A stretch of DNA of 64,000 nt, taken from NCBI GenBank assembly GCA_004298665.1, contig SCQY01000356.1, positions 17,485 through 81,484 on the forward strand, given 5' to 3'. The DNA is from a bacterium. GTDB taxonomy: Bacteria > Vulcanimicrobiota > Vulcanimicrobiia > Vulcanimicrobiales > SCRA01. Below, in pieces: positions 3,710-51,655 of this stretch. How positions within the stretch are numbered: the first letter of the stretch is position 1; each line of letters starts with the position of its first letter. Made by a program: the position numbers and the translations under genes. The notes below the pieces were generated by a model, which worked only from the letters and a program-made list of their open reading frames with translations, did not search any database and was not told the origin of the DNA.

Positions 3710-3833
3710 TCGAACGAGACGCACGGTCGCCTTCGCTGGCCCTGGCGGACATACCATCGGACCGTGCGCCAGCGGTCCGACGGATCGTGTGGCGACGAAA
3801 GCTTTCGCAACCACCTTTCAGGAGACCACGTTC

Positions 3834-27540: not shown

Positions 27541-27585
27541 TCGTGATGGCGTTCCCTTGACACGACCCCGGACTTCGGAGCCACG

Positions 27586-33667: not shown

Positions 33668-34326
33668 AGCCATGATCCCACGACCGATCTTCACGAGGCA
33701 CTCAAGCCCGCGCCAAAGCAACATTACCCGTCGATCACGGATCCAAAGGAAGTCGGCGCACTGATGCGTGCGATTCGGGGCTACACCGGTGGCTTTGAAA
33801 CGAAATGCGCGTTCCTTATCGGTATTCTGACCTTTGTTCGCCCCGGGAACTCCGTAAGGCTGAATGGTCCGAGTTCGACTTTGATCATGCGGAGTGGCGC
33901 ATCTCCGCCAGCAGGATGAAGATGAAAGAGCCGCATGTCGTGCCTTTATCGAAGCAGTCGCTTGCCGTTTTGAAGGAACTCTATTCGGCAACAGGGCATG
34001 GACGGTACGTCTTTCCTAGTGTCAGGACCAGTGCGCGACCGATGAGCGAAAACACCGTCAACGCGGCACTGCGGAGACTCGGCTACACGAGTGAACAAAT
34101 GACGGGTCATGGATTTCGCAGCACCGCCTCGACGTTGTTCAATGAGCAGGGCTGGCCATCCGATGCAATCGAGCGGCAGCTATCTCACGGCGAGCGGGAT
34201 GAGGTGAGGGGTGCTTACAACTTCGCGGAATATCTGCCGCTGCGCAGGAAGATGATGCAGGCGTGGGCTGATTATCTTGAGGCACTTGAACGTAATGTGA
34301 CGACAATTCGCTCGAGGTCCCGGTAG
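33668..34326 (+). pseudogene. P4/CP4-57-type tyrosine integrase, 5'-truncated by the IS66 end and frameshifted
   Basis: Two frames (33641..33919 and 33805..34326) together read ..DPTTDLHEALKPAPKQHYPSITDPKEVGALMRAI...LTFVRPG / ELRKAEWSEFDFDHAEWRISASRMKMKEPHVVPLSKQ...HGFRSTASTLFNEQGW...IERQLSHGERDEVRGAYN. The catalytic R..HxxR..Y box is present, but the N-terminal ~150 aa are missing. Confidence 0.7.
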
Positions 34327-35677: not shown

Positions 35678-35852
35678 GCTCAGGTTTCTCCTTTCATTGC
35701 CACCTCGTTCTGCGGAGCCACCAGGCACTCCGTGCCGAACCACGTTGCACCGGCACCATTCAAAGAGTTCCGGGGAAGGGCAGGGTGTTTCGTTTGGGCC
35801 GTTGTGTGCCTGTAAGGCGTGTTCGGAAGGCAGCCGCGAGCCATTCTTCAAG

Positions 35853-36337: not shown

Positions 36338-37243
36338 CTAATTGAAGGGCGACTTGTGCTGGCCATAAATCAACGGGATGAGCTTGTCGGCATACTCGCC
36401 AATCGTTTGGGCGTCGGACTCGATCTCGCCGAGCGCGGTCTTCATGCATGTTGCGGGATCGTCGACGAATGCCTTGTGCTTCGGAAACTCGATTCGATCA
36501 AAATCGACGAGATCCTTGAAGTGAGCGACTGCCCGATCAGCGGCGCCTGGGTCGACAGCCACGATGCGCCAGGTGTCGTAGATATGGCGCACCAGCGCTT
36601 TGTCCCGGTCCTCGCGCACCTTTGCACGGTGTTCGGCAAAGCGGCGCAGAAACGAGAGGACTTTTTCTGCCAGTGTCTCCTCTACGGAAACACATTGCAT
36701 GGCGAAGGGTTCGCCAGCCTGATCAGCCAGTCGATCGATCAGATAGCCGAGCTGATGCTCGGACGTCTCGAAGGCGGGTGCGCGGACCGTGAACTCGACA
36801 CTCAGGTGAGTGCGCAGGCTCTGACGCGGCCCGTAAACCGACGAATACATCCAGCTGCTTGCGAAATACCGGTTGGCATTTCTGGCGCGAGCCTCTTCCG
36901 GAATCTCCTGGAAATCCAGCTCCATCAGCGTTGCGGCCACCCTCCCTTTCAACGCGGAAAGGTGCTTCTTTAATGCGTTGTCGCTGAGACCATGTGCAGG
37001 CGCCAGCACAACTTTGAGATCGACATCCTCCGACATCCGCTCAATGATGCCGTGCGCCTTGGAGAGACTCGTCCCGCCACAGAAGACCAATTTGACGTGC
37101 TCGTGAACGATGGCCGACAACGCGCGCAAAGCGTCAGTTACATGAATGTCCTTCTCGAGAATGGCGGCGGAGATCCCGCCGACGTCTTCTTCAGCGAGTA
37201 GGGCGTCGATCAACTCCCGTTGGTCGGTTGTAATTGTTTTCAT
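36338..37243 (-). CDS. abiEii: AbiEii/AbiGii-family nucleotidyltransferase toxin (type IV TA, DUF1814)
   Basis: FCGGTSLSKAHGIIERMSEDVDLKV (NTase G-G-x-S..., D.D), then ETLAEKVLSFLRR. Confidence 0.8.
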   Translation of the reverse strand: MKTITTDQRELIDALLAEEDVGGISAAILEKDIHVTDALRALSAIVHEHVKLVFCGGTSLSKAHGIIERMSEDVDLKVVLAPAHGLSDNALKKHLSALKGRVAATLMELDFQEIPEEARARNANRYFASSWMYSSVYGPRQSLRTHLSVEFTVRAPAFETSEHQLGYLIDRLADQAGEPFAMQCVSVEETLAEKVLSFLRRFAEHRAKVREDRDKALVRHIYDTWRIVAVDPGAADRAVAHFKDLVDFDRIEFPKHKAFVDDPATCMKTALGEIESDAQTIGEYADKLIPLIYGQHKSPFN

Positions 37244-37631
37244 ATTCGATGGTCTTGGGTCCGAAGCCCAGCTTGCGGGAGATGCGCCGATTCCCGGTAT
37301 TGATTACCACGCCGGCGGCGATTTGCGTCGTCGTGCCCGCGTTATATTCGGCAGTCTGACGGCGTGGATACACTTTCACGCCAAGCTTTTTCAGTGCTTC
37401 TGGTGCCAGGAACTCGACCGGCTCGACCGGGATCGGCTTCCCGCTCAACACGCTGCGCTTCGCCTTGGCGTAGACGCCTACCCCGATTTTAACCACTGCG
37501 CCTTCATCGACCAGATTGCGCAGCGCACGGCTCAGCTGGGCCTCGCTGCCCAAGTCCAAGAAATCGGCCCGCAGGAAGACATTTGTCCTTTTCCGGCCGA
37601 GCGCCTTTCTCAATTTGTCTCGTAGGGTCAT
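37191..37631 (-). CDS. abiEi: AbiEi-family antitoxin/transcriptional regulator
   Basis: ATG 37631 follows ggagg. MTLRDKLRKALGRKRTNVFLRADFLDLGSEAQLSRALRNLVDEGAVVKIGVGVYAK is a winged-HTH AbiEi N-domain. The 3' end overlaps the abiEii start. Confidence 0.7.
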   Translation of the reverse strand: MTLRDKLRKALGRKRTNVFLRADFLDLGSEAQLSRALRNLVDEGAVVKIGVGVYAKAKRSVLSGKPIPVEPVEFLAPEALKKLGVKVYPRRQTAEYNAGTTTQIAAGVVINTGNRRISRKLGFGPKTIEYENNYNRPTGVDRRPTR

Positions 37632-38180
37632 GATGACCTCCGTCAAACATCAATCGCAATTCTAACCGATTGATTCTACGATGAAAATACGTCACGCGAC
37701 GCTCACCGGCCAAGCTGGTCCAGTATAGCCTTTGTGGACGTCTTCGTCTGCTCCACGGCCGTCAAAAGATGAGGGCGAGACGCTGCAGGCGGCACAGGGT
37801 GCACGAGCACGCACCCCCACCCGGGTTGACTGGCAGACGGAGGCTGTCCTGAAAATGGGGGCCGTAAGTTCGCGATCTGGACAACAAGGTGTCGACGAGC
37901 CGCGTGCGCCACGAATAGGCCAACTTGTTCCATTTTGTTCCGGTTCCCCTTCGGGGTAGATTTGGGGGTAACCGATGCGTCATCGAATCCGAAGTCACCC
38001 GCGGGGCAGGCCTGAGCGACCTGAGTGTGAATCCCACCCGGCCCACCAAAGAATCTCCGAACTATCCCCAACGTCTCTGTGCCGTTAAGCATAAAGTGGC
38101 CACTTGGACAGGTTATGCTTGATTTCCCGATGGGACACGTTTTGCTTTATCGGGTAACGGTGCTAGGGTCAAAGGTTTTG

Positions 38181-38256: not shown

Positions 38257-39555
38257 TTAGCTTACGCCGAGCGTCTCCTTGACCTCCTGTAGGACGTCTA
38301 TGACACCTCGGATGCTGCCCAGGACCTCCTTCGGTACGCGGGCATCGAGCTCTCGTAGGTTGATTGCCTTGCCGTCGGCGAGGATATCCCTGCACGCGGC
38401 CTCGATGACGGTGCGAGCATTGTCGACGCTTCGTTCTTTCCGGCGCTGCATGTATTGCGTCCAGCGCTCGGCCAAAACGCGTGCCTCCTTGTTCGCGTGT
38501 TGATAAAGCAGTCGGGCGTCGACGTCGAGCCTGCGTGCGGCTTCGGACACGCTGATGATTGACGGTAGCTTGCTGAATGTCCGCAGTTCAGCCCGGACGT
38601 TATCCCAGTCGATTGCGCGAGCAGCCGCACGTTTTGTTTCGTCCGGAAACAGCAGTGCCAGCTGGTGGATTTCCGCCGAACACGGAGCCCAGCCGATTAA
38701 ATCGCCCATGAGCAACTGTGGCAGTGCCAATCCTGTCTGTGAGGCGATGCGCAGATGCGCCGGCAATGCAGGGGCCCCCGCCTGCTTCAGCCAATAGTGA
38801 ACCGTTGTCTTGCTCAGGCCTACACGCCGAGCGAAGAGCGCCCCTTTGCCGTTGTCTAGCCGGGTGACGAGCGTTTGTATTGCGTCCTGCATTGCGTGCC
38901 GGGTTGGCGGCGTCTCGAGGGACCCTTGCGCCTTCAGCATCGCCCCGACCTGGGTTGCCTTCCAAAGCTCTTCTGGCGTAGCAGCAGGAGGCGGCTCTCC
39001 GTCTCCGAGAAAGGCGCCGCAGTGCGCGCACCAGCCGGGCACGACGTACGCGGACTTGTGTCGCGCGTCGGGGCGGCCGCAATCCGGGCAGATATGCACC
39101 AATTCGGTCTTGTGTCTTGCGCACACAGTCACCGCACCCACGTCCCATGCCAGGCGGAAATACGGTGTCTTGCCGCTTTCCTTGTCTTCGGCGAAGCACG
39201 CTGGACACCAGCGTGCCCGCGTCGCAGCGAGGCTCGTCTGTGCGATAACGTCACGCCATGGCAACAGCGTGAGTCTGTCCAGCCGCTCGACGCTCGTTAG
39301 GGCAGAGAGAGCGGCCGACCAGTTGCTGGCTGCTTCTCCGATGCCGCCAATGTTTCCCACGTGCCATTCGTGTTTCTCGGAAAGCTCCCAGCCAACGGTC
39401 CCGGCGACTTGCCTGCAAAGCGCTGCGACGGACACGCTATGCGATACGGCCAGCCGGCAGAAGTAGCTGAGCAGGCTCTCGACCTCGGGCGTGTCGAGGC
39501 CGATGGGCGCCAGAGCGTGCAGCGTCGAGCGCGGATTCGAAATCGAATAGCTCAT
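38257..39555 (-). CDS. tniQ: TniQ/TnsD-family target-selection protein
   Basis: Start MSYSISNP (39555) forms an ATGA overlap with the tnsC stop. TniQ N-domain (LAPIGLDTPEVESLLSYFCRLA), Cys clusters CPACF..CARH..CPDCG..CAHCG, and a C-terminal HTH-like region. The upstream extension to 39777 is rejected. Confidence 0.8.
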   Translation of the reverse strand: MSYSISNPRSTLHALAPIGLDTPEVESLLSYFCRLAVSHSVSVAALCRQVAGTVGWELSEKHEWHVGNIGGIGEAASNWSAALSALTSVERLDRLTLLPWRDVIAQTSLAATRARWCPACFAEDKESGKTPYFRLAWDVGAVTVCARHKTELVHICPDCGRPDARHKSAYVVPGWCAHCGAFLGDGEPPPAATPEELWKATQVGAMLKAQGSLETPPTRHAMQDAIQTLVTRLDNGKGALFARRVGLSKTTVHYWLKQAGAPALPAHLRIASQTGLALPQLLMGDLIGWAPCSAEIHQLALLFPDETKRAAARAIDWDNVRAELRTFSKLPSIISVSEAARRLDVDARLLYQHANKEARVLAERWTQYMQRRKERSVDNARTVIEAACRDILADGKAINLRELDARVPKEVLGSIRGVIDVLQEVKETLGVS

Positions 39556-40592
39556 GCTGCGCTCCTTCTGCTGGTCGATGCGTGCCGCCGCTGGGTGGGC
39601 ATGATGCGGGTGAGGCCGGGATTGATGGCCTCCTCGCCCTCGAGGATTTCGGTGAGAATCCGGTCGCGCTGCGCCTCCGTGAGCAGCGCGCGCCGTAGCG
39701 CATCGGTTGACCAACGACCGTCGGCATCGGCCAGTCGGGAGGCTCGGACAAGCACGCTGCTCAGCGTGCCGATGCAACCGAGCGTGTTTTCATGAAGCGC
39801 CTCCGCGTAACGCGTCAACTCGCCGCCCCACAGCGCGGGCAGCATCTTTTCGAATGCCTGGATACAGGCGATGAATGCGCGAACGTCTTCGGGGCGGTCC
39901 TGCCGATAGCGTTCGAAATGGAGGACATGCGAGCGTCTGGCGAGTTGACCAGACAGCGACATAAGCCGGTAAAGGTCGTAGGAGCCGACCAACACCATCT
40001 GCGTGCCGCATTGGTTCACCAGGGACTTCAGCGTATCGAGCTGAATCTCCAGCTTTGAACTGCCGCGCGTCTGGTGAATGATGTGTGCTGCTTCGTCGAT
40101 GACCAGGAACTGGACTTTCCGCTCGCGCAGCGAGCGCTCGACGGCCGTCCGTAATGCCGCGAGACTGTTGCCACTGGCACCGCGCGGCCGCACCATGCGT
40201 CCCGATTGGGCGTCGACGCCATAGGCCGCTTTCGGCGAGTCGAGGTCGTCACCGAGTTGGGAGAGAATCTGGCGATAGAAAAGTCTCCACGAGAAATCGT
40301 TCTCGCCAGAGGCCGGTGCTTCGACGAAGAGGGCCGGAATCGTGCCGGCGTTCGCCTCCATGTCCGCGGCGGCGCGTTCGACCGCCGCCTCGACCATGTA
40401 CCTGGCCAGCGTGGTCTTGCCCGCTCCCGTCGGACCACAAACGAGGAGTGTGCTGTCCTGGCTGCCGGGGTAAATCAGGGTCTCCAGTTCAGACATGACC
40501 TGTGCAATGCGCGGGTGTCTGATGCGCTTGCCGAGCAGAGCGCTCGCCGAATTTGGTACCGGCGAGAGCGGGGCGGAATGTTTTTGTTGCAT
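39552..40592 (-). CDS. tnsC: TnsC/TniB-family AAA+ transposition ATPase
   Basis: Walker A is VCGPTGAGKTTLA and Walker B is FLVIDEAAH. 346 aa. Located between the transposase and tniQ. Confidence 0.85.
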   Translation of the reverse strand: MQQKHSAPLSPVPNSASALLGKRIRHPRIAQVMSELETLIYPGSQDSTLLVCGPTGAGKTTLARYMVEAAVERAAADMEANAGTIPALFVEAPASGENDFSWRLFYRQILSQLGDDLDSPKAAYGVDAQSGRMVRPRGASGNSLAALRTAVERSLRERKVQFLVIDEAAHIIHQTRGSSKLEIQLDTLKSLVNQCGTQMVLVGSYDLYRLMSLSGQLARRSHVLHFERYRQDRPEDVRAFIACIQAFEKMLPALWGGELTRYAEALHENTLGCIGTLSSVLVRASRLADADGRWSTDALRRALLTEAQRDRILTEILEGEEAINPGLTRIMPTQRRHASTSRRSAA

Positions 40593-40600: not shown

Positions 40601-43312
40601 TCAAAAAGTGTCAAGGTCAGGAATGTCGTCCCACGCCGCTGCCTCGGGCGGCGATTGGACCGGATTGTTTGTTGATGTCGTTGATGACCTTGTCTCTGCC
40701 GGCGATTCGGCAGCGCTGGATGTTTCCTCGATGAGGCTAAATCGATTTAGAGGAGCAACGGGGGCGATGCTCGCAAACTGCAAACTGTTATAAAGCGACT
40801 TGTTTTCCGCCTGGCGTTCGAGAGCAACAGCCATCGCGCCTTCTGGCGTGAAGGTGCGCATGAACTCCTTAAGGCGCTGCGCGTCCTGCTCGTCAGCGAC
40901 CGATGTGCGGTAGCGTCGGTCGTATTCTTGGGTCAGTGCTTTCCTCTCGTTTTCGGTTAGCTGGCCAAGACCGCTCAAGCTCGGGCAGACGGCTTGAATC
41001 CATTGGTCCTTTATCCGTACATAGACGGACGATGCATCCCACGGGTCATACCTGACGGGAAGCCGTTGACCGGCGACTTGATAAGACCGGAATGCGGGGT
41101 GGTGATAGAGCCGCTCGTTCACCTTTACGCCGCGCTGCGGATGAATTTGTCGCAGTCCTTCCCGGTCAACCGGGGGGCATGTCGCAATCAGGAAGTCCCT
41201 GTTGAACTGGATATGCAGGTGCTCCCGCGAGCCGCTTTCACGAAGGCCACGCTGAAACGCCTCACGCGGCGATTCGCCGAGGACGGGGTGCTGTTGCTGG
41301 TCATAGAAATCCGTAGCCCAGTGTTCAATGCCGTAATACATTGGTTCGAGCGTCCACTCGGCGAGGTTCTTGGGTAGATGCGAACCGGACACCATGCGGA
41401 CTTGCTTTGTGGCCTTCGTGTTGCCCGCGAGACCGTGTATGTAATCGACGTTCAGCCGGCCGAACATTCGTTCGAGCACCGCACCGTGACGTGGGTTGCC
41501 GGACGGACGGAAACGCAGATGGCAACCCATTGCCTTGAGAAATGATTTGAATGCTGAAGACCGAAAGTCGCTGCCGTTATCGACGACCATAATTTCAGGC
41601 AGCCGATGAAAGCGACGGACCATGTCGCGGACCGCCATCATCACCGAGTGATATGAAGGCGGGTCATACGTTAGGAATATGCCCACGATGCGCCGGGTAT
41701 ACGCGTCCACGGCAAGCGATAACCACGGCCTGCCGAGGTTCTTGCCCGTGCGGCTGGAAATGAGTTCGATGTCCAGTTCGGTGTGGTCGATATGCACATA
41801 CTGGAACGGTCGGCTACCGTGAATCGGCGTGTGATAGTGCAGGGCGTCCACGAAGGCATCTTTCTGGTATGCCAAGCGTTTGCCTTCGCGAACCCGAGTG
41901 TCATGGTTGGTCGTCTGCCCTTTGATGCGTGCAATCAAGGTTGGGTATGACGGCGCCGGCACATTTTCTTGTTCGCACATCACTAGCAGGTGCCGATGGC
42001 AGGTCTTGTAGTTAATTGCCTTGCTGGTTCGCCATTCTTTGTCAATGACCCGGTCCATCATGTCAATCTGCTCTTCACTCAGCCGAGCCGTGTGGTTTCC
42101 GCGAGCACTGATGTGCGGTACCAAAGCCAGAATCTCATGGTCGCCATTCGCTCGAGCGACGGCCTGGCGAGCATTCCAGCGACGCAATGTCCTGGCGGAA
42201 ACAGTCGCCACTGCCGATTCGGACTGGAGTAGCGTCTGGCGCCGAAGTGCTTCCGCGTACTCTTCTTCGGTATACCGGCTCAGACCGAGGTCGGCGGGCG
42301 GTGCTGCTTCGAGGACCCGGATGCGATTTTTGTCATGAGCCGCAAGGAGCCAGTCACGCTGAAGCTCCATGGTGGTTTGGTCCTGCCTATTGCAGACCAC
42401 GCTTTTTTCGCCGACCAGCGTGATGGTCAGTTCCTGGCCTTCGAATTCGAACCGCGTGCCGATGGCGATATGAAGTGCGAAGCGTTCGTAGCCGGGCGGC
42501 GTTGCGCGATGTGACTCGGCATAAAGGAACTCGCGAAGCGTTTTGTCCCGGTAGATTCGGAAGCGTCGAGGATTGCGTAGGGACTCGTGGTCAAGGTCCG
42601 TCACAACGAGTTGGTCAGCGATGGCCTTGTTCACATGGTCGGCGCTGAACGCGTACGGCGGCTCGAGCAATTCGTAGAAATGCAGGGCACCATGTTCCTT
42701 CAGTGCGGCATCGAGACGAGCGAGAACATCCTCGGGGCAGGGTTCTGCGGCCGGGAGGTAGTAGTCGGCGAGATGCTGCAGGTTTTCGATGCGGCGCCGG
42801 GGAATCGCGGCGTCGCTGCGAATCCGGTACCGAATACCGCGTTCGGCGAGCTGCTCCTCGATTTGCGGCGAACACCAGTTCCCATCAGGATGTCGCTGGT
42901 AGCGATAGGGGTACTTCTCGGCCAGCCGGGTCAGCTTTGCCTCGGACTTCCATTCCTCGAGCGTGATGCCGTCCTTGGAAATGACGAGAAAGTCCGGCGT
43001 GTGATGTATCGCACGGATTTCACCGGTGGAGTCGTCGACCAGGGTGAACTGCAACTTGCACGGCTGCGGATAGAACTCCAGCACATGTTCGTCGTATTCG
43101 AACCCGATAGCGGCGGCGAACTCGATGCCGTAGCTCTCCGTGGCGATTTCGCGCGCCATCTTCCTGCTTGCCACATAGGTAATGACATTGCCTCCCCGGG
43201 AGGCCACATCGCGCACGGGCGCGTGGATGCGCGCCTCCTGGACCAGCTTGCGGCCCGGGAGCGGCGTGCCCAGATGGTCGAACAGGTCGGTCAGTTGTGC
43301 CTTGTTCAGCAT
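40601..43312 (-). CDS. Tn7-like transposase: single 903-aa ORF fusing a TnsA-type endonuclease N-domain to a TnsB/MuA-type DDE transposase
   Basis: N-terminal part: ESYGIEFAAAIGFEYDEHVLEFYPQPCKL...HHTPDFLVISKDGITLEEWKSEAKL (TnsA E..D..K pattern). Centre: YVHIDHTELDIEL, IMVVDNGSDFRS (DDE), with Mu-transposase C-terminal-like sequence. Confidence 0.85.
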   Translation of the reverse strand: MLNKAQLTDLFDHLGTPLPGRKLVQEARIHAPVRDVASRGGNVITYVASRKMAREIATESYGIEFAAAIGFEYDEHVLEFYPQPCKLQFTLVDDSTGEIRAIHHTPDFLVISKDGITLEEWKSEAKLTRLAEKYPYRYQRHPDGNWCSPQIEEQLAERGIRYRIRSDAAIPRRRIENLQHLADYYLPAAEPCPEDVLARLDAALKEHGALHFYELLEPPYAFSADHVNKAIADQLVVTDLDHESLRNPRRFRIYRDKTLREFLYAESHRATPPGYERFALHIAIGTRFEFEGQELTITLVGEKSVVCNRQDQTTMELQRDWLLAAHDKNRIRVLEAAPPADLGLSRYTEEEYAEALRRQTLLQSESAVATVSARTLRRWNARQAVARANGDHEILALVPHISARGNHTARLSEEQIDMMDRVIDKEWRTSKAINYKTCHRHLLVMCEQENVPAPSYPTLIARIKGQTTNHDTRVREGKRLAYQKDAFVDALHYHTPIHGSRPFQYVHIDHTELDIELISSRTGKNLGRPWLSLAVDAYTRRIVGIFLTYDPPSYHSVMMAVRDMVRRFHRLPEIMVVDNGSDFRSSAFKSFLKAMGCHLRFRPSGNPRHGAVLERMFGRLNVDYIHGLAGNTKATKQVRMVSGSHLPKNLAEWTLEPMYYGIEHWATDFYDQQQHPVLGESPREAFQRGLRESGSREHLHIQFNRDFLIATCPPVDREGLRQIHPQRGVKVNERLYHHPAFRSYQVAGQRLPVRYDPWDASSVYVRIKDQWIQAVCPSLSGLGQLTENERKALTQEYDRRYRTSVADEQDAQRLKEFMRTFTPEGAMAVALERQAENKSLYNSLQFASIAPVAPLNRFSLIEETSSAAESPAETRSSTTSTNNPVQSPPEAAAWDDIPDLDTF

Positions 43313-43448
43313 TACGTCCTCACAGAAATTGCCTACAAAGGACGTGTAGTGCTGCGCGCATCCGACCGGTCATATACGACCGATTAAAGTGTGCGAGAAT
43401 TCGCGCTTCCTCAAAAATCTGAGGCCAATTCAAGGCAAAGGTGCAACG

Positions 43449-43712
43449 ATGGGCGAGAGGCTGCGCAAAAGGACTGCGTCCCAAACGGACGTGTACGGCT
43501 CGTGGGAGGAGACGGCGAAGGAGCTGATAGTGGAGAAAATGTACCGACGGCGCCTGACCTATAAGGAACTGGCGAGGCGGCTGGATCAATACGGCATAGA
43601 CGAGTCGCCGGACCAGATAAACCGGAAGGTCAACCGGAAGACGTTCTCGGCGGCGTTTCTGCTTGCGTGTCTGGCGGCGATGGGTGTCAAGGCCGTTCGG
43701 ATTACGCAGTGA
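43449..43712 (+). CDS. DUF6471 domain protein (small HTH-like), divergent from the transposase
   Basis: MGERL...RRRLTYKELARRLDQYGIDESPDQINRKVNRKTFSAAFLLACLAAMG matches my recollection of DUF6471 (..N K.SRG.FSA.FFLQCL.AIG). Internal ATG chosen. Confidence 0.6.
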   Translation: MGERLRKRTASQTDVYGSWEETAKELIVEKMYRRRLTYKELARRLDQYGIDESPDQINRKVNRKTFSAAFLLACLAAMGVKAVRITQ

Positions 43713-44810
43713 GCGGGCGCTCGGGACACAAGCGTCCGTACAGAACCTGCGCGGGTTCACCCATCGGAATCGCTCCGCCTGTCGCATGGCCGTCTCACCT
43801 CGTACCCTCTCATAAAATGGGGAACGATGCCATTGACTAAAGGGCCATAGCACAGAGGTTGCGAATACTCAGGTCGGCGTTGCGCCGAACTTCCAAGCTA
43901 GTAAATTTGACGGTCGGGTTCAAGGATTGTTGACGGGCGATGTTTGGCGGGCGCTCGTCCTTGGTGGCACATCGGAACAGCGACCGCGTCTTGTCCCCAT
44001 AAACTGTTGACAAACCCGTGGATAAGTGCTTGAGGACGCTGCTAAGCCATTGATGCTGCTATGTTTTGTGACGGTGACCTTCCAGTGAGCGCCGGCGGAC
44101 GATATACACATTCACCCGTCGGTGGCGGCGACGTTCACGAAAGCCTTCGCGATTCGAATATCGTCCTCGATGACGGCAACACGGCGTGATGCGTTGGAAC
44201 GAAGCCGGAGCGGCGTCCGCGCCAACGGCGGAGCCTCCTGCGTCGAAGACGCCGCTTGCTTGCAGTGCTTCAATTGCGTTGGCGGCAACAGAGCATGCTC
44301 ATGCGCACGAAAGACACTATACGGTTGTGCCACACGTCGGCCGAGCACAAGCCGTCCGACGACAGGGCCGCCCCGTCCGACTGACGGGCTTCGGTGAGTG
44401 GCCGCTTGCGTGGACGGGGGCTGAAACCACCACTAGCACGCAGGGGATAGCCGAGACTAGGGGGATAGCGTCTGAGATATCGGCAACGGGATGGCGAAGC
44501 TAGCGTCCCGGAGGACGCGTAGAGGCTGGCGGGCGAGGCGGCTCCATACCGGTGACAACTTGGGCGGAGAGGCTGAGTGGAAGGTTTTCCCGGGCGTAGA
44601 TGCCGTAGGGAGGGCTGGGCTCAGCCTCACCACCCGGAGACACAAACCTGCGGTAGTGCTCAGGGCTGAGCCATTCAAGGGAACAGTGGGTACGAGGAGG
44701 AAGATTGATACTGATTGGTCGAGCGCGCAGCGCAACGACTCGAACGAAACTACCTCGCTTCGGCGACGGTGTAGCTATAATCGGCTAAAACATCGAACCC
44801 AAGAACTATC

Positions 44811-45920
44811 GTGAGAGACCCCAAATCGCGCCGCCCCGGGGGAGTAGCCGCATCGAGCGGGGCGTCGGCCAGCAATCCACTCTACATGCCACAGCGAGAA
44901 AAAGCTGGAGCCGCCACGTTCGACCGCTTCAACTTCCAGTACGACTGGGCTCTCTACGAGTTTCTGGAGCAGTACAAGGAAGACCGCGCAAGCATCGTAT
45001 TCGTCGAGTTCCATGAAGATGTAGTCTTCAGTTCATCGTTGGATGCGGCTGAGGCCAGATTTGTTTTTTGCCAGGTCAAAGCTGGCGCGAGTGCCAATTT
45101 CAACAAGAAATCGCTCGTCAAACGAGTAAAGCAGAAGCCGTCCGTTCTCGGGAAAATGTTCACTAGCGTGGGTGACAAAAGGATAGCCGAACGGGTCGAC
45201 AAGGTTCGCCTTGTTGCCACCGGCGGATTCAAACTCGAGCTTGCGGAGAAAGGCTTCCAACTCGAAGAAATCCCGTGGGATGCGCTAACACCGGAGACCG
45301 CGAACGAGATAGGCGCGGCACTCGCAGCGGAACTTGGGACGGACTGTGCGCTGGAAAAACTTCACTTTCACAAGCCTCGACTTGCCGAGTTGCAGCACCG
45401 AAGAACCGTCATCGGGTTGATAGCCGACCTTATAAGCGAGCGGGTTCCGAATGAAGGCGGAAACTGCCAGGCCATTTATCTTGCTCTACAGGATGAACTC
45501 CGACGAAAAGGTGTCGTGACTTGGGACTACTCCGACTGGGAGAGCCTAGTGCGCAACAAGGGGCTCACTGGCCAGCGGGTGGACGCACTGTTCGAACAGT
45601 TTGCTTCATCGGACACGGCCGAAGAGCTGCTCTCCGACTTCGACTATGCAACGGCCGACCTTCAATTCGAACCGCGAGAGCGGCGAAAACTTCGACACGC
45701 GGCGCAAACCTACGTCCTGAATACACTGGATGGTGGGTCTCTCGCGCACCTGCAAGTACGAGGGTCAATTTGCAGGCACCTGCAGAGCGATTTTCCCCTG
45801 AGGCTAAGCGTTGAGCATCTGACGCGTCTGGTGGATGCTTGCCCTGATGTCGCGCGCGGACAACTCGTCGACCGGACCTCCCTGACCGCCGCTTACATTA
45901 TCGAATACCTGAGAGCGTGA
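44811..45920 (+). CDS. lmuA: Cap4-type dsDNA nuclease (DUF4297) protein; LmuA-like effector
   Basis: FDRFNFQYDWALYEFL...IVFVEFHEDVVF...FVFCQVKAG is the DUF4297/Cap4 nuclease pattern (GF.YQ ... E..ED ... QVK). Start uncertain: GTG 44811 or ATG 44886. The Lamassu assignment is tentative. Confidence 0.6.
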   Translation: MRDPKSRRPGGVAASSGASASNPLYMPQREKAGAATFDRFNFQYDWALYEFLEQYKEDRASIVFVEFHEDVVFSSSLDAAEARFVFCQVKAGASANFNKKSLVKRVKQKPSVLGKMFTSVGDKRIAERVDKVRLVATGGFKLELAEKGFQLEEIPWDALTPETANEIGAALAAELGTDCALEKLHFHKPRLAELQHRRTVIGLIADLISERVPNEGGNCQAIYLALQDELRRKGVVTWDYSDWESLVRNKGLTGQRVDALFEQFASSDTAEELLSDFDYATADLQFEPRERRKLRHAAQTYVLNTLDGGSLAHLQVRGSICRHLQSDFPLRLSVEHLTRLVDACPDVARGQLVDRTSLTAAYIIEYLRA

Positions 45921-47677
45921 GATGGCGTTGCCAAACTACAAACTGCTCGTCAGAAAGCTACGCACCAAAGCCTATGAGCGCATTGATATTCAAGAGACTG
46001 TTCGTTCAATCGACTACCCAAAAACTCGCAGGTCAGTTCCGATTCGAACCCGGCTTAAACCTGATAACGGGCGATGACAATTCCATCGGCAAATCTACGC
46101 TCGTACGATTGCCGCTATGGACTCTGGGCTGCGATTTCAATTTCGACGCCAGCTGGACCGCACTCGACGTCAGAACAATTCTGGAGTTCGAGGTTGATGG
46201 CCATGCGCTTCTTGCCGCACGCCATCGTAACAAGATACGTCTCAAGGTAGGACAAGAGGAATGGCACGATTATCACAGCACCAGTGATGCCTACGAGCAG
46301 GAATTTGCGAGCATGGTGCACTTCGGTGCGTTGTTGCCACGCCGTAAGCAAAAATGGATTCATGAGGTACCTCCGCCGGCGTGCTACTTTTCGGCTTTCT
46401 ACGTCGACCAGCGTCGTGGATGGACGGAACCGTGGGGCAGCTTCGTCATGCACAAATACGAGGATTGGCGACGCCCCGTTATCAGCTTCCACGCCGGCTA
46501 TCATTCGGCGACCTATTTTGAGGTCGGTGCCGAGATAGCGAAGCAGCGGCAAAATATCGACGATGACGAGGGGCTCATCGGGAAGTATGGGCGCGCCGTT
46601 GAGGTTCTGAACTTGCTTGCTCCGCCGGAAGAACTCCCGGAAACCGATGTTGAGCTCGATTCTGCAATCTCAGACATTCAGAACTCTATGGTTGCCGTTA
46701 AGCGCCGTGAACAGCGCGCGTTATCGTTGCTGCGTGGCAAGCAGGAAGAACTCGAAGTCACGAAGGTCCAGCGTGGAATTGCACAAGCAGCCGTTGACGA
46801 CCTCGAGAAAGACTACGACTTTGCCGTCACGCAGCTGCGCGACGATGTCCTCATCTGTCCACTTTGCGGCACCTCGCACGACAATACCCTGCTCGAGCGT
46901 GCATCGCTTTTGCAAGACCGCGCTCAAGCGGAGCAGCAGGTAGCCGTGCTCACGGCAGCGCAGTCGAAAATCGAAACCACAATCGAAACGACGCTCCGGC
47001 GACTCGACGCTGTTCGCGAAGAACTATCGAAACTCAACCGCCGCTTCAAGCGCCTCGACAAAGACGTGACAGTCAAGAGCATCCTCGAAACCATGGGGAC
47101 GGATTCTGTGCGCCGTCGCGCGGAGGAGGTAACGGCCACCACGAGATTGCGACTGCGCGCTAACAAGAAGACCCTCGCACAACAGCGTGCGGCACAGAAC
47201 GACCTCATCGAGGAGGGAAAAGCGGAGAGTATCAACGTCTACTATCAAAGAGAGCTAGCCGGCCTATGCGATGCCCTGCGCCTCTCCCCGGCCTTCGATG
47301 TGAAGACGGCATTGCCAACTGGATACAAGGAGTTAGCTGTCTCCGGTGGTGGTGCGGACAGCTCTCGCCTGCAGTTGGCCTATCACCTGGCGATGCATAG
47401 TCTTATTCGCCACTTCAAGACCGAGGTACTTGCTCCGTTGATTCTCGACACGCCGAATCAGCAGGACCAGGGAGCGCTCAACTACAGCCTTGTTTCGGTG
47501 GAACTCAAGCGCCGTGCGACGAAAGACACGCAGTTTTTTGTATGCGCGACTCGTCATCCGGCAATGCAGGCACTTGAGAACGATTCCACGGTCATCGAAC
47601 TTGGCCAGAACCGGCTGCTCTCTGCGGAATCGCACAAACGTCTCGAGGCTGGGTTTGCTCGTGTTTTCAGTCAATAG
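45917..47677 (+). CDS. lmuB: SMC/Rad50-like ABC ATPase with long coiled coil; LmuB-like
   Basis: LNLITGDDNSIGKSTLV (Walker A), a ~250-aa heptad-rich middle with a central CPLCG, and C-terminal LILDTPNQQDQ (Walker B-like, compare LmuB LDQPSQ). The GTGA overlap with the upstream gene gives one start; ATG 45974 (MSALIFKRLF) is the alternative. Confidence 0.6.
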   Translation: MRWRCQTTNCSSESYAPKPMSALIFKRLFVQSTTQKLAGQFRFEPGLNLITGDDNSIGKSTLVRLPLWTLGCDFNFDASWTALDVRTILEFEVDGHALLAARHRNKIRLKVGQEEWHDYHSTSDAYEQEFASMVHFGALLPRRKQKWIHEVPPPACYFSAFYVDQRRGWTEPWGSFVMHKYEDWRRPVISFHAGYHSATYFEVGAEIAKQRQNIDDDEGLIGKYGRAVEVLNLLAPPEELPETDVELDSAISDIQNSMVAVKRREQRALSLLRGKQEELEVTKVQRGIAQAAVDDLEKDYDFAVTQLRDDVLICPLCGTSHDNTLLERASLLQDRAQAEQQVAVLTAAQSKIETTIETTLRRLDAVREELSKLNRRFKRLDKDVTVKSILETMGTDSVRRRAEEVTATTRLRLRANKKTLAQQRAAQNDLIEEGKAESINVYYQRELAGLCDALRLSPAFDVKTALPTGYKELAVSGGGADSSRLQLAYHLAMHSLIRHFKTEVLAPLILDTPNQQDQGALNYSLVSVELKRRATKDTQFFVCATRHPAMQALENDSTVIELGQNRLLSAESHKRLEAGFARVFSQ

Positions 47678-47857: not shown

Positions 47858-49420
47858 ATGAATATTTCCGAAATTCTCGCTCGCCAGCTTCACGCACATA
47901 GTTCAGGCCCATTCTTGTTCGCGGGCTCAGGACTTTCTCGACGGTACCTTGCCCTGGATGACTGGGCGGGATTACTGCGTCGGTTCTGTCAGCATGTCAA
48001 GCCGTACGAGTATTACTTTTCATCAGCAAACGGAGACTTGCCGACTGTTGCGGCCACCATGGCGGAGGATTTTCATGAAGTATGGTGGACGCGTGAGGAG
48101 TACGCGGGCAGCCGTGAGAAGCATTCGAAGAAGATTGCCGACCGGACCGGGCCGCTCCGTGTGGAGATTTGCGATTACCTGCGGAGTGTCGGAATTGCGG
48201 ACCTTAGCCAGAGCGCTTTCGCTGACGAACTCGCCGCGCTGAGCCGGTTAAATGTTGACGGTATCATTACAACAAACTGGGATACATTCCTTCAATCGCT
48301 CTTTCCTGACTACAGGGTGTACGTCGGTCAAGACGAATTGCTATTTTCAAATCCACAATCCATCGGTGAAATATACAAAATCCACGGGTGCGTGAACACT
48401 CCGAGGAGTTTGGTTCTAACAAGCGCCGACTATAGCAATTTCAATGAGCGGAATGCTTATCTCGCGGCGAAACTCATCACAATCTTTGTCGAGCATCCCG
48501 TGATTTTCATGGGTTACTCACTGAATGACGCAAATATCATATCTCTGCTTAAAGCAATCTGCACGTGCATCGGTCAGGACAAGCTGCAGCAGTTGAACAA
48601 CAACCTGATTTTCGTTCAACGCTCCCGCGACGGTGAGAACGATTCGATTTCACAAACGGTCATCGCGCTAGAAAAAGTGCAAATCCCAATAACGCTAATT
48701 AAGGCGGGGTCATTTGTTGGTGTCTATGAGGCCATCGAGTCGACGAAGCGGAAGATTCCTGCTCGGGTTCTTCGCTACTGCAAAGAACAGCTTTACGAGC
48801 TAGTCAAAACTACCGAGCCGCATGGCAAGCTGGTGGTCGTCGATGTCGACCAGGTTAATGGTCGCGAGGACATTGAGTTTGTTGTCGGCGTTGGGGTTGC
48901 TGCCGAGAGGGAGGAGGAGGAGCAGCGTCTCCTTGGGGACGTTGGTTATCGCGGTATCAAGCCAATTGACCTCTTCGAGGACCTCATATTCAAGAATAAG
49001 GAGTATGAGGCACGCCGGGTTCTTCTGGAGGCGATGCCGCAAATTTCAAAGGGGCTGACGTACCTTCCAATGTTCTATCTCTTGCGAGCAGCAGGTATCA
49101 ATAACGCAGAAGAATACGCGGCGTCGGGATACGATGTGGACAAGTATGTACGGTTGACGCCCGCGGCATTTAAGGCAAAGAGTCTGGCAAAGGGGTTCAT
49201 GCGCAACTATCGGGAATTGAGCGTCACTGAAATGATTCAGAAATGCACTCCCGAAATTGTCGCTCAGTACCTACCGTTTACCGAATGGAGACGTGAAGAC
49301 TACGATGTAATCGGAAAGTTTCTTGCCGCGAACATCGACCGATTCCGTACCTCAAACTATTCCACTGCATTTCGTAAATTGGCCTGTCTGTACGACCGCG
49401 CGGTGTTTGGGTGGGAGTAG
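47858..49420 (+). CDS. SIR2-like (SIR2_2) domain protein with unknown C-terminal domain
   Basis: FLFAGSGLSRRY, GIITTNWDTF (Asn), IYKIHGCVNTP (His), and IFMGYSLNDANI form the SIR2_2 block order. The C-terminal ~250 aa are unassigned. The gene is visibly AT-richer than its surroundings. Confidence 0.75.
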   Translation: MNISEILARQLHAHSSGPFLFAGSGLSRRYLALDDWAGLLRRFCQHVKPYEYYFSSANGDLPTVAATMAEDFHEVWWTREEYAGSREKHSKKIADRTGPLRVEICDYLRSVGIADLSQSAFADELAALSRLNVDGIITTNWDTFLQSLFPDYRVYVGQDELLFSNPQSIGEIYKIHGCVNTPRSLVLTSADYSNFNERNAYLAAKLITIFVEHPVIFMGYSLNDANIISLLKAICTCIGQDKLQQLNNNLIFVQRSRDGENDSISQTVIALEKVQIPITLIKAGSFVGVYEAIESTKRKIPARVLRYCKEQLYELVKTTEPHGKLVVVDVDQVNGREDIEFVVGVGVAAEREEEEQRLLGDVGYRGIKPIDLFEDLIFKNKEYEARRVLLEAMPQISKGLTYLPMFYLLRAAGINNAEEYAASGYDVDKYVRLTPAAFKAKSLAKGFMRNYRELSVTEMIQKCTPEIVAQYLPFTEWRREDYDVIGKFLAANIDRFRTSNYSTAFRKLACLYDRAVFGWE

Positions 49421-49662: not shown

Positions 49663-50181
49663 TCAAAGCGCTCCGGTGAGCAACTGGTGCATCAACGCGA
49701 GATGGTGATAAATCTGCCGCTCCTTGTTCTTTGGCAACCCCGGAAAGTGCTGCTCGGCAACGTCATTTGCATATGCTTGTAGCGCTTCGTCATTTCCGAA
49801 TGCCCGCGGAGCCTCGCGGACGCGCTGAATCAATTTTCCAGCCGCTTGCAGAAACTTCTCGCCGACGGTGCCGACGTCGCGCTCGATGTCGTCGGAAACG
49901 AAATGTTCAACCCAGACCTCCGCTCCTCGTTCCTTATAGGTTGCGTGAATCGCGACGGCTGACGGTTGACCGCCACCTGCTTCAAAGGCTGCACCCAGGA
50001 TTGTGTAGTCGCCGAATCCGAGCGCGACGTTCCGAAAATTCAGGTGACGGTCGGTGAAGAACTCAATACCTTCATAGTCGGAATTGCGTGCTTTACGCTG
50101 GAATTCGTCGTGGATGTCGACGACCTTGTCTCGGGGCAGGAGCGCACGATGTGCAGCGCTCATCCGCTCCTGCAGATTCAT
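49663..50181 (-). CDS. C-terminal half of a sce7725 / T4 'beta protein'-like protein (split ORF)
   Basis: 172 aa. ATGA overlap with the upstream 149-aa ORF. Together about 320 aa, which I recall as the usual size of the family. It is either a frameshifted pseudogene or a coupled two-ORF arrangement. Confidence 0.5.
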   Translation of the reverse strand: MNLQERMSAAHRALLPRDKVVDIHDEFQRKARNSDYEGIEFFTDRHLNFRNVALGFGDYTILGAAFEAGGGQPSAVAIHATYKERGAEVWVEHFVSDDIERDVGTVGEKFLQAAGKLIQRVREAPRAFGNDEALQAYANDVAEQHFPGLPKNKERQIYHHLALMHQLLTGAL

Positions 50182-50627
50182 GTGGAAGCGGACATTCGCC
50201 CTCTCGCCAACCGCTGCGCGTTCGCCTCAGTGAGCCGGGAGTTCAGGTAAAGTAAGGCTACGTCGCGCCCGCGATACCGCGCAAGAAAGTCCCTGATTTC
50301 GGGAATCGTTGTCGTATGCGTACATAGCAGGCCCGGAATCAACGCGCCATGCGTGTTGATGGCTTCTTCGACTGGCCCAATCCAGCCGTCAAAGTTGCCG
50401 GCGTGAAAATCGTGCTGATGTGGGTTAGTAACCACAACCAGGTTGTCACCGCCTTCGCCGAACTCATTCAGCACTCGAACCAAAGGGGCCGCGGCGCGAT
50501 TAACCGGTTCGAGGATTGGAATCAGAACGTCCCGGACAGGATAATTGACGCGCAGCGAGCGCAACGCCAGAAGCTCTGACTGGCGAGCATAAAGATATGG
50601 GAAGTACAAAATCCGGCCCTTTCGCAT
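50178..50627 (-). CDS. N-terminal half of a sce7725 / T4 'beta protein' (PF14350-like) protein
   Basis: ILYFPYLYARQSELLALRSL matches the family N-terminus as I recall it (Y.P.l+.+.gEl.AL+.l). Confidence 0.5.
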   Translation of the reverse strand: MRKGRILYFPYLYARQSELLALRSLRVNYPVRDVLIPILEPVNRAAAPLVRVLNEFGEGGDNLVVVTNPHQHDFHAGNFDGWIGPVEEAINTHGALIPGLLCTHTTTIPEIRDFLARYRGRDVALLYLNSRLTEANAQRLARGRMSAST

Positions 50628-50653: not shown

Positions 50654-51655
50654 TCAGGCAAGCCTGTACTTGATATCCTCTCTCAGAGCAGAGAGTGCGG
50701 TTTCTCTCTGTCGCCCCGACAACGGGGTGGCATAGCCGAGCACGCGCAAACTTTCCGGCGGCGCGGTCACGAAGTGCACAGTGTCCCCGTCGGTTTTCCT
50801 TTTTCTTAATGCGTGTACGAAGATATCATGTGCTTCCAACGGGGTAAACTCCTGGAATACGCTGCTGCAATACGCTTGAATAATCGCCGACGGCTTCACG
50901 ACCGGCATACCAGTCTTAAGCGATACCGCCTCGACATACTCAGCTCTCTGAAGGCAATTGAAGACAGCTTTCGGGGCGATGTTCTGCCGGTTGGTCGACG
51001 GCTCGCGAATCGGTCGCAGCGAGCCCCGGTCTGTGAGCGCGAGAACCCCGACCCGTGGGTCAACGATTTCTGCATAGCTGTCGGCGCAGTGCGGATGAGT
51101 CACGAGGCACACCCGGTCGAACGCCGTCAGATAGTCTGATGTCTGTGTCGTGAGCCGTCGTGGGGTATCAAATTCCGTTTTGATTTCGTAAGCTGTCGAT
51201 GTCCCGTTGAAAACGGCAACATCAACGATTGAGCGTCCCACTGGCAACTCGACGTGCAGGGCTGCCGTGTTTGGACTGTGTCTCCCGAAAACAATGCGGT
51301 TCGCGATTTCGGTCTTGTAGACAAACTCGTTACGGTATGCGCGACGCATCTCCTGCCACGCCGAATCGAATAGGGACGCCAGCGATTGTCTCTTCGACGT
51401 CGCAGTCAGTAGTTGGCGCTCGGCTAAGAAGCTGAGCGCCAACTGCCAGTTACCGGACCGAGCGATGTTCGCGAAAACCGGCCGCGTGAACATGCGCGCG
51501 AGAATGCGCAAGCGCTCGGCCGGGCTCAGGGCCCTCAGCATGGCACTCGATTTGGCTGACTGTCTAACGAGGTCGGGAGCAGGCATTCGGTAGGACGTTT
51601 TCGTTGGCGTCGATGTTCCGCGTGGGATGGGCGCTATTGTAATGCCGGTGTACAT
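50654..51655 (-). CDS. sce7726-like protein with PD-(D/E)xK nuclease-like core
   Basis: VELPVGRSIVDVAVFNGTSTAYEIKTEFD has the D...(E-x-K) restriction-endonuclease-fold motif. It ends 26 nt upstream of the sce7725-like ORF. Start uncertain (51655, or the internal Met residues MPAPDL / MLRAL). Confidence 0.55.
   Translation of the reverse strand: MYTGITIAPIPRGTSTPTKTSYRMPAPDLVRQSAKSSAMLRALSPAERLRILARMFTRPVFANIARSGNWQLALSFLAERQLLTATSKRQSLASLFDSAWQEMRRAYRNEFVYKTEIANRIVFGRHSPNTAALHVELPVGRSIVDVAVFNGTSTAYEIKTEFDTPRRLTTQTSDYLTAFDRVCLVTHPHCADSYAEIVDPRVGVLALTDRGSLRPIREPSTNRQNIAPKAVFNCLQRAEYVEAVSLKTGMPVVKPSAIIQAYCSSVFQEFTPLEAHDIFVHALRKRKTDGDTVHFVTAPPESLRVLGYATPLSGRQRETALSALREDIKYRLA

Follow-up and report, generated by a model that had tools for sequence, protein, structure and literature searches.

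A divergent, probable type I Lamassu locus with a predicted zinc hook in LmuB

Background

The closest described relative of the locus studied here is the type I LmuAB system of Bacillus cellulasensis NIO-1130 (PDB 9ux7/9ux8; a system of Doron 2018), in which lmuA is followed by lmuB and there is no LmuC. The effector, BcLmuA, combines an N-terminal Cap4/DUF4297 nuclease with a helical C-terminal domain, and BcLmuB, of approximately 565 amino acids, possesses a Walker A motif, a deviant Walker B motif, a short, kinked coiled coil and a single apical CxxC. The type II Lamassu (DdmABC, ABC-3C) systems of V. cholerae and S. enterica (LmuACB; PDB 9hqu, 9hqx, 9uxh, 9nyg) likewise pair a Cap4-type LmuA with a short LmuB, but they need a small middle component, LmuC, and their LmuB is longer, at about 630-650 amino acids.

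Zinc hooks ("CPxCG or similar") were on record for LmuB by 2023, and in 2025 the copy number of CxxC was mapped over the LmuB tree, some clades having zero or two copies (PMC12663957). In a type I LmuB the hook was seen at the tip most remote from the head (bioRxiv 10.1101/2025.06.23.660979). A functional LmuB hook is reported to be needed for defence: the type II LmuB of S. enterica also carries one, and its hook mutant lost phage protection (bioRxiv 10.1101/2025.03.14.643221). The zinc atom itself was not resolved in the published cryo-EM maps of LmuB (bioRxiv 10.1101/2025.03.14.643221, bioRxiv 10.1101/2025.06.23.660979). The LmuB of V. cholerae works without a hook (PMC12663957), so the hook is not universally required. 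Both the lmuAB system and its hook are already known. The initial annotation of the present DNA had suggested that the zinc hook was undescribed for LmuB, which is not supported, such hooks having been described, surveyed, seen in structures and mutated.

Here we describe an lmuAB locus in the window, by which we mean the whole 64,000-nucleotide stretch of contig SCQY01000356.1 that was analysed. It is very probably a type I (two-gene, LmuC-less) Lamassu system against phages and plasmids, one of the short systems that use a Cap4 nuclease. Both open reading frames are present on the + strand where the initial annotation had placed them. The analysis establishes what both proteins are, that the pairing of lmuA with lmuB is conserved, that LmuC is absent, that the motifs of the ATPase and the nuclease are intact, and that a CPxCG is conserved at the apex of the coiled coil. 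Both predicted structures fit the B. cellulasensis LmuAB chains best (Foldseek), but the sequences are very divergent, with approximately 17% identity for LmuB and 15% for LmuA in the structural alignments. The two systems also differ in their hooks (CP[LI]C[GA]TxHDN here, CQYCH in BcLmuB), in their hosts (the relatives of the present genes are found in Burkholderiaceae, while BcLmuAB comes from a Bacillus) and in the pair of PADLOC models that recognizes them (PDLC00240/PDLC00257 for the present clade).

Results and discussion

LmuA, the putative effector

The first gene and its parts are as follows.

44811..45920, + strand: lmuA, effector of 369 amino acids; Cap4/DUF4297 nuclease at the N-terminus, helical domain at the C-terminus (Pfam, PADLOC, Foldseek)
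44901..45512, + strand: Cap4-type PD-(D/E)xK nuclease domain, residues 31-234 (Pfam domain limits)
45006-45020, + strand: EFHED, residues 66-70 (motif position)
45072-45080, + strand: QVK, residues 88-90 (motif position)
45513..45917, + strand: all-helical C-terminal domain, residues 235-369 (AlphaFold2)

Profile searches, proposed earlier as a check on the nuclease, assigned it to LmuA/Cap4. It matches Pfam PF14130, Cap4_nuclease, over profile positions 1-200 of 200 (E-value 4.7e-40) and the PADLOC LmuA model PDLC00240 over positions 4-361 of 364 (E-value 4.7e-114). Among 17 homologs E66, H68, E69, D70, Q88, V89 and K90 are invariant. Of the three Cap4 blocks reported initially, E..ED (as EFHED) and QVK are therefore present and invariant; the literal F.YQ is absent, the sequence at this place being F-N-F-Q-Y-D (FQY, residues 42-44). 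The GTG at 44811 is supported as the start codon by the N-terminal 'MRDPK...NPL', which is common to homologs annotated as 369 amino acids long. A start at M26, as in the 344-amino-acid Logan gene call P0042, was rejected, for the conserved NPL lies upstream of M26.

The AlphaFold2 model of LmuA is wholly helical in secondary structure from residue 243 onwards. In the PDB it matches best 9ux7_C, which is LmuA in the DNA-bound type I LmuAB complex (E-value 7.3e-7, Foldseek), in an alignment of 352 columns which consequently covers both domains. The resemblance is a moderate fold match (TM 0.42-0.49). Sequence searches of the PDB, with the single sequence or with a profile of 17 sequences, returned nothing at E <= 0.01, so that the link to a solved LmuA comes from the fold search alone. 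By analogy with the published LmuA structures (bioRxiv 10.1101/2025.06.23.660979, PMC12663957), the C-terminal domain is presumed to be a docking and tetramerisation module.

The nuclease also resembles Cap4, the effector of CBASS, which belongs to the same Pfam family: its fold matches 6vm5, 6wan and related Cap4 entries, and it too may be activated by oligomerisation. Unlike CBASS Cap4, however, LmuA has the Cap4 nuclease as its sole detected domain, with no SAVED or CARF. No neighbouring gene matches a CBASS model, and there is no CD-NTase gene nearby. Activation here would presumably come about by release from LmuB, in contrast to the cyclic oligonucleotide of CBASS.

LmuB, a Rad50/SMC-like ATPase

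The second gene was delimited as shown below, LmuB residues being counted throughout from the ATG at 45974.

45921..45973, + strand: lmuA-lmuB intergenic spacer, 53 nt (gene comparison)
45974..47677, + strand: lmuB, Rad50/SMC-like ABC ATPase of 567 amino acids (PADLOC, PDB profile, Foldseek)
46070..46099, + strand: Walker A/P-loop GDDNSIGKST, residues 33-42 (motif position)
47342..47353, + strand: ABC signature-like motif SGGG, residues 457-460 (motif position)
47438..47470, + strand: deviant Walker B LILD-T, then PNQQDQ (LILDTPNQQDQ), residues 489-499 (motif position)

The ATPase had likewise been put forward for profile searching, and was recovered as LmuB with PADLOC model PDLC00257 (E-value 2.3e-189; profile positions 1-568 of 571). 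A profile of its homologs matched, over the full length, PDB entry 9ux7_A, 'Lamassu protein LmuB' from the type I system of Bacillus cellulasensis (E-value 1.2e-30). The same chain ranks first in the Foldseek search with the AlphaFold2 model (E-value 7.1e-20). Other Lamassu complexes hold four of the five places from rank 2 to rank 6 (9hqx_B, 9hqu_A, 9uxh_F and 9hqu_B), and 9nyg_B is at rank 9; rank 2 is taken by 9a6c_A, a non-Lamassu integrative model (YYDD-YYDB). The fold match to type II LmuB is weaker than that to type I LmuB, and the Rad50 and SMC heads rank below the Lamassu chains. NCBIfam holds no model for either Lamassu protein, and Pfam none for the present LmuB, where a match to Mesothelin, spurious and below threshold, was the only one.

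The N-terminal Walker A motif GDDNSIGKST that had been recognized from the sequence was located at 46070-46099, and G39, K40 and S41 within it are invariant among 31 homologs, as are G458 and G459 of the signature-like motif. Equally, the C-terminal LILDTPNQQDQ, described as reminiscent of LmuB, lies at 47438-47470 in a protein which the PADLOC and PDB profiles identify as LmuB; D492, T493, P494, N495, Q496 and Q499 are invariant. Its LILD-T fits the Walker B pattern of short Lamassu systems, hhhhD[Q/S/T/E] (PMC12663957).

The two genes had been thought to overlap by 4 nt (GTGA). This is true only of the longest reading frame, which opens at GTG 45917 and is probably an artefact of choosing the longest ORF. 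Most likely, judging from gene comparison, lmuB starts at ATG 45974, 53 nt past lmuA, since all 41 of the 41 homologs found, including P0001, which is 100% identical, are about 567 amino acids long and begin at the equivalent ATG. The PADLOC LmuB profiles start at residue 20 of the longest ORF. Burkholderia cenocepacia has CTG where the upstream GTG stands here, with a spacer also of 53 nt, and Citrobacter koseri has stop codons in the upstream frame and a spacer of 59 nt.

Coiled coil and the CPLCG motif

Between its ATPase motifs LmuB contains a helical region with three parts.

46508..46831, + strand: ascending coiled-coil arm, LmuB residues 179-286 (108 residues; AlphaFold2 secondary structure, pLDDT)
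46856..46870, + strand: zinc-hook motif CPLCG (zinc binding predicted), residues 295-299, in an apical hairpin of residues 292-303 (conservation, AlphaFold2, alignment)
46889..47203, + strand: descending coiled-coil arm, residues 306-410 (105 residues; AlphaFold2)

The AlphaFold2 model (pLDDT 85) places CPLCG in a hairpin between two antiparallel helical arms, flanked by helices 228-286 and 306-358. This structure prediction, suggested earlier as a check on whether the CxxC sits at the tip, does place the CxxC in the hairpin that links the ascending arm to the descending one. The helical region, residues 179-410, is centred on 294.5, which puts CPLC (residues 295-298) exactly in its middle. 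A low-confidence break at residues 219-232 of the ascending arm, an elbow, lies near the BcLmuB kink at residues 210-225, and a break at residues 359-366 of the descending arm matches the BcLmuB kink at residues 351-357 (bioRxiv 10.1101/2025.06.23.660979).

A CxxC appears in approximately 5% of residue shuffles of LmuB, so its single occurrence would by itself be weak evidence. Judged by conservation, the motif is not there by chance: all 31 homologs, down to 29% identity, keep C295, P296 and C298 unchanged, where the mean column identity is 52%. The motif of the clade is CP[LI]C[GA]TxHDN, with H302, D303 and N304 near-invariant. In the profile alignment with 9ux7_A, CPLC falls on 285-CQYC-288 of BcLmuB, which is the published zinc hook, located by cryo-EM at the tip most distant from the ATPase head (bioRxiv 10.1101/2025.06.23.660979). 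The placement at the apex is based on how helices and hairpin follow one another in the single-chain model, together with this alignment to a solved hook. The initial view that CPLCG lies mid-way along the coiled coil and looks like a Rad50-type hook agrees with the invariant CPxC, the apical hairpin and the BcLmuB alignment; the motif was correctly named, but its position, reported as 46855-46866, was a few bases off. Sequence and model thus support CPLCG as the zinc hook at the LmuB coiled-coil tip, with zinc binding as a prediction.

Alternatively, CPxCG could be conserved as a structural turn or as a site of contact at the tip and bind no zinc, with LmuB pairing through the coiled coil alone or the motif docking LmuA. 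We consider this quite unlikely. Zinc knuckles classically carry the signature CPxCG, both cysteines persist in the most distant homologs aligned, the motif falls on the hooks that lie side by side in the BcLmuB dimer, and the S. enterica hook mutant gave no phage protection. On the other side, neither published LmuB map resolves the zinc atom, the V. cholerae LmuB is functional though hookless, the CxxC is missing or doubled in some LmuB clades, and the near-invariant H302, D303 and N304 which follow the motif hint at a role beyond that of a plain four-cysteine site. It is conceivable, if quite unlikely, that the apex of the proteobacterial type I clade, a beta-hairpin knuckle in the model, is not a plain Rad50-style four-cysteine zinc site shared by two chains, but has H302 or D303 as extra ligands or acts as a conserved docking or switch surface for the C-terminal domain of LmuA. 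If so, the hook would be part of effector control, beyond a mere dimerisation clasp.

Two-gene organization

No LmuC-like ORF was found between or around lmuA and lmuB with the ORF list and the PADLOC models, and the small flanking ORFs gave no match to any PADLOC model at E <= 1. The PADLOC LmuA and LmuB matches, taken with this absence, bear out the original proposal of a two-gene Lamassu-type system without LmuC. The adjacency of lmuA and lmuB is kept in two further genera, in B. cenocepacia and C. koseri, where the homologous loci comprise only the two genes. Since the pair recurs there with a spacer of 53-59 nt among unrelated neighbours, it is a self-contained two-gene unit.

LmuC is present in most short Lamassu systems (PMC12663957), and such small, diverse proteins could escape profile searches. 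The locus might accordingly be a three-component (type II/ABC-3C) Lamassu whose LmuC was missed, is encoded elsewhere or has been lost, in the last case leaving a non-functional remnant. This is very improbable: there are just 53 nt between the genes, the small ORFs around them match no PADLOC model at E <= 1, the same layout occurs in distant hosts with other neighbours, all catalytic motifs are kept in both proteins, and the closest solved relative is an LmuC-less type I system that is active against phage.

Genomic setting

Type I lmuAB, as we read the pair, lies, next to a Tn7-like transposition module, in a low-GC defence island with AbiE, a SIR2 protein matching PDC-S25, and sce7725/sce7726. 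Some relatives of LmuB are carried by plasmids, others by genomes of Klebsiella phages. Tn7-like transposon ends, which could mark lmuAB as cargo, were sought by their repeats over 26000-53000 and by motif, with matches at chance level only, and a promoter scan predicted no sigma-70-like promoter near the lmuAB operon. The locus also has a Betaproteobacteria-1 RNA, which may belong to an lmuA leader or form a separate transcript. A 14-mer scan of contigs for other copies of this RNA, a pattern too short for the purpose, gave matches in unrelated phyla, with the RNA in none of the 8 loci checked; full-text literature on 'Betaproteobacteria-1' provided nothing relevant.

LmuB is built like Rad50 and SbcC: an antiparallel coiled coil interrupts the ABC ATPase head and carries at its apex a CxxC, the predicted zinc hook through which two chains would dimerise, and by analogy LmuB would recognize DNA ends. 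Its Walker B motif is deviant, with D-T instead of their D-E. With its fold like that of the Rad50 and SbcC heads, and Lamassu having been proposed to derive from SbcCD (PMC12663957), one might take the pair for a housekeeping DNA-repair ATPase with an associated nuclease and not an immune system. We regard this as extremely unlikely. Lamassu proteins are the best matches by far, Rad50 matches having E-values weaker by some 10 orders of magnitude; the neighbouring lmuA encodes a Cap4 PD-(D/E)xK enzyme, not the Mre11/SbcD phosphoesterase; and the coiled coil, at about 105 residues per arm, is far shorter than in Rad50/SbcC. The company of AbiE, SIR2 and transposition genes in a low-GC island and the patchy occurrence in Burkholderiaceae also speak against it. 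The outcome here would presumably be immune (abortive infection), in contrast to the repair carried out by Rad50-Mre11 and SbcCD.

Proposed mode of action

The following scheme is carried over from B. cellulasensis LmuAB and from the LmuACB of V. cholerae and S. enterica, as an analogy across about 17% (LmuB) and 15% (LmuA) identity. Type I and type II systems share its proposed logic, in which an inactive nuclease is released, when DNA ends are sensed, to form a tetramer. Two LmuB chains would be joined both through their folded coiled coils and through the apical hook, where two cysteines from each chain presumably share a zinc ion. The dimer may keep one LmuA monomer inactive (LmuB2:LmuA1). 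Free DNA ends, or related structures arising from phage or plasmid replication, would be bound by the LmuB head, and ATP turnover at the slow, deviant Walker B site would then lead to the release of LmuA. Released LmuA could tetramerise through its C-terminal domain, creating an active Cap4 nuclease site, and the tetramer would cut DNA indiscriminately so that the infected cell is killed or ceases to grow, as in abortive infection.

Conclusions

The database labels 'hypothetical protein' and 'dsDNA nuclease domain-containing protein' can be replaced by LmuB and LmuA, respectively, of a type I Lamassu. Beyond annotation the significance is small, since relatives have had their hook described, seen in structures and mutated before. 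The locus documents a defence island built round a Tn7-like transposition module. It also represents a further, divergent proteobacterial case of the LmuC-less architecture with its zinc hook intact, and may be of use in comparing the ways in which type I systems do without LmuC.

Gene organization

ORF calling recovered two genes on the same strand, encoding the Cap4 nuclease LmuA and the Rad50-like ATPase LmuB.

44811–47677, +: the two ORFs together
44811–45920, +: lmuA, 369 aa

The GTG start of lmuA at 44811 is credible, since the N-terminus MRDPK...NPL is common to the 369-aa homologues and a start at M26, the alternative, would leave out its conserved NPL. Of the nuclease blocks reported for this gene in the initial annotation, EFHED (aa 66–70) and QVK (aa 88–90) were found, but the literal F.YQ is missing, the sequence reading FNFQYD. 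In LmuB, GDDNSIGKST is encoded at 46070–46099 and LILDTPNQQDQ at 47438–47470.

A 4-nt GTGA overlap between the genes had also been proposed, but GTG 45917 is likely not the lmuB start; from the lengths of the homologues, the profiles and the upstream sequences of two homologous loci, lmuB probably starts at ATG 45974, from which its residues are numbered here. All 41 homologues are about 567 aa long and begin at the equivalent ATG, among them a database entry 100% identical to LmuB ("MAG: hypothetical protein EPN42_15830 [bacterium]"), and the PADLOC LmuB profiles leave out the first 19 residues of the long ORF. Burkholderia cenocepacia has CTG in place of the upstream GTG, and Citrobacter koseri has in-frame stop codons upstream of lmuB. 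With this start the intergenic gap would be 53 nt, as long as in B. cenocepacia; Citrobacter has 59 nt.

The pair had been read as a two-gene Lamassu system lacking the small component LmuC, and this is borne out. The spacer is too short for a gene, the small ORFs flanking lmuAB gave no match to PADLOC models at E ≤ 1, and the same two-gene unit recurs amid unrelated neighbours: in B. cenocepacia these are helicase-like genes and the gene for a 1264-aa SIR2 protein, in Citrobacter an integrase gene and genes for mobilisation. lmuAB has the type I Lamassu architecture, which has been described as clade S, with "loss of LmuC" (PMC12663957).

Identity of LmuA and LmuB

LmuB matched no family in Pfam or NCBIfam. 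Profile searches nevertheless assign it: PADLOC LmuB PDLC00257 matches end to end (E 2.3e-189), and the PDB chain 9ux7_A, "Lamassu protein LmuB", was found with the single sequence (E 3.4e-5) and at full length with a 31-sequence profile (E 1.2e-30). Foldseek with the AlphaFold2 model (pLDDT 85, pTM 0.73) also ranks 9ux7_A first (E 7.1e-20). Second is 9a6c_A, a non-Lamassu integrative model (YYDD-YYDB); the other four of the next five (9hqx_B, 9hqu_A, 9uxh_F and 9hqu_B) and 9nyg_B at rank 9 are from other Lamassu complexes, with Rad50 and SMC heads ranking lower than the Lamassu chains.

LmuA covers all 200 positions of the Pfam Cap4_nuclease profile (E 4.7e-40) and matches PADLOC LmuA PDLC00240 nearly end to end (E 4.7e-114). 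Sequence searches of the PDB with LmuA, even with a profile, gave no match. The best fold match of its AlphaFold2 model (pLDDT 77) is 9ux7_C, the LmuA chain of the type I complex to which 9ux7_A belongs (E 7.3e-7), followed by Hachiman HamA, Cap4 and Avs3 nucleases.

The zinc-hook motif of LmuB

The CPLCG noted initially at 46855–46866 is present, a few bases away at 46856–46870. Shuffling the residues of LmuB yields a CxxC in about 5% of cases, and one occurrence by itself means little; conservation, position and alignment weigh far more. C295, P296 and C298 are invariant across 31 homologues with identity down to 29%, and the motif of the clade is CP[LI]C[GA]TxHDN. Within this stretch (aa 295–304; 46856–46885, +), conservation is at least 90% at T300, H302 and D303 and complete at N304.

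In the AlphaFold2 model the first part of the head extends to about residue 175; next, an ascending arm spans 179–286 (108 residues, with a low-confidence break at 219–232), a short hairpin at 292–303 bears CPLC, and a descending arm spans 306–410 (105 residues, break at 359–366), after which comes the C-terminal half of the head. CPLCG is thus placed in the hairpin joining the two coiled-coil arms, at their exact midpoint, and CPLC aligns by profile with the CQYC hook of the Bacillus cellulasensis type I LmuB. Neither outcome that the initial annotation would have counted against itself, an ATPase of a non-Lamassu family or a CxxC away from the apex, was thus seen. The arm breaks lie close to the published kinks of that protein, at residues 210–225 and 351–357 (bioRxiv 10.1101/2025.06.23.660979). 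The region around CPLCG is modelled as a beta-hairpin, not as a helix-turn-helix tip.

The hook had been thought possibly new to LmuB; it is, however, established knowledge. LmuB has been presented with "a Zinc-hook dimerization domain", and a functional hook is reported to be needed for defence (bioRxiv 10.1101/2025.03.14.643221). Across the LmuB tree there are zero, one or two copies of CxxC, the hook being lost in Vibrio cholerae (PMC12663957).

Genomic neighbourhood

The neighbours of lmuAB form a defence island, listed here together with other features of the window.

27527–28866, −: adjacent DUF2063 and MbnB/TglH/ChrH-family pair, the MbnB-like ORF covering profile positions 88–180 only
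31548–33401, −: uncharacterised island ORF of 617 aa, no Pfam or PADLOC match
33805–34326, +: 173-aa ORF with partial Phage_integrase catalytic domain (profile positions 40–166)
34841–35851, −: uncharacterised island ORF of 336 aa, no Pfam or PADLOC match
36338–37646, −: complete AbiE pair (AbiEii nucleotidyltransferase toxin, PADLOC E 1e-114; AbiEi, E 4.9e-50)
38257–39777, −: TniQ, 506 aa, Tn7-like module
39552–40592, −: TniB/TnsC-like AAA ATPase, 346 aa, Tn7-like module
40601–43312, −: TnsA-TnsB-like fusion, 903 aa (TnsA-like N-terminal endonuclease, rve integrase, Mu-transposase C-terminal), Tn7-like module
43389–43712, +: small DUF6471 protein (E 2.6e-27), divergent from the fusion gene
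44403–44534, +: Betaproteobacteria-1 RNA (RF02932), full-length Rfam match, 69.3 bits (gathering score 49.4)
47858–49420, +: SIR2_2-domain protein, 520 aa, PADLOC PDC-S25 end to end (E 2.4e-183)
49663–50181, −: sce7725-family ORF, profile positions 145–312
50178–50627, −: sce7725-family ORF, profile positions 1–129
50654–51655, −: sce7726-family gene, adjoining the split sce7725 gene

The window belongs to a metagenome-assembled bacterium. LmuA and LmuB have their nearest relatives in Burkholderia, Paraburkholderia, Caballeronia and Pandoraea, and some plasmids and Klebsiella phage genomes carry relatives of LmuB too. GC content drops from about 0.60 to 0.51–0.56 over 45–51 kb. lmuAB may be cargo of a Tn7-like element; the AbiE pair lies across the transposition genes from lmuAB. 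A search for transposon ends of the module found none. The 173-aa ORF is probably a truncated tyrosine recombinase, an integration remnant close to the island's left-hand side. Pairs of DUF2063 and MbnB/TglH/ChrH proteins typically belong to RiPP-modification or metal-related clusters. The DUF6471 gene is called with a later start (87 aa) in a Logan assembly.

The SIR2_2 gene, whose PADLOC match is a candidate single-gene system, starts 180 nt downstream of lmuB. The SIR2 protein of B. cenocepacia is a different one, just upstream of lmuAB (808–4602 of that sequence), and both look like defence-island neighbours, not Lamassu parts. The RNA is encoded on the lmuA strand, 277 nt ahead of lmuA and within a 1.1-kb ORF-poor gap (43713–44810); it is absent beside lmuAB in B. 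cenocepacia and Citrobacter and is thus not a general Lamassu part. The two sce7725 ORFs overlap by ATGA, and the split, identical in an independent Logan assembly, is either natural or caused by a frameshift. Beyond the sce7726/sce7725 pair lie ordinary metabolic genes.

Proposed mechanism

By analogy with homologues at about 15–17% identity in structural alignment, an LmuB dimer, whose two chains join along the kinked coiled coils and again at the hook, would sequester a single inactive LmuA monomer. DNA ends from phage or plasmid replication would be bound by the LmuB head, and LmuA release would accompany ATP turnover at a deviant Walker B site, here LILD-T, which fits the published short-Lamassu pattern hhhhD[Q/S/T/E] (PMC12663957). 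LmuA might then form a tetramer with an active Cap4 site, degrading DNA and aborting the infection. The residues needed are all conserved in LmuA and LmuB; the zinc atom itself is unseen in published LmuB maps (bioRxiv 10.1101/2025.03.14.643221; 10.1101/2025.06.23.660979).

The initial observation stands with minor corrections and its interpretation is supported, but its novelty is not: exactly this LmuA/LmuB clade was already covered by full-length models in PADLOC-DB v2 (2023), and lmuAB is an ordinary, previously catalogued type I Lamassu system.
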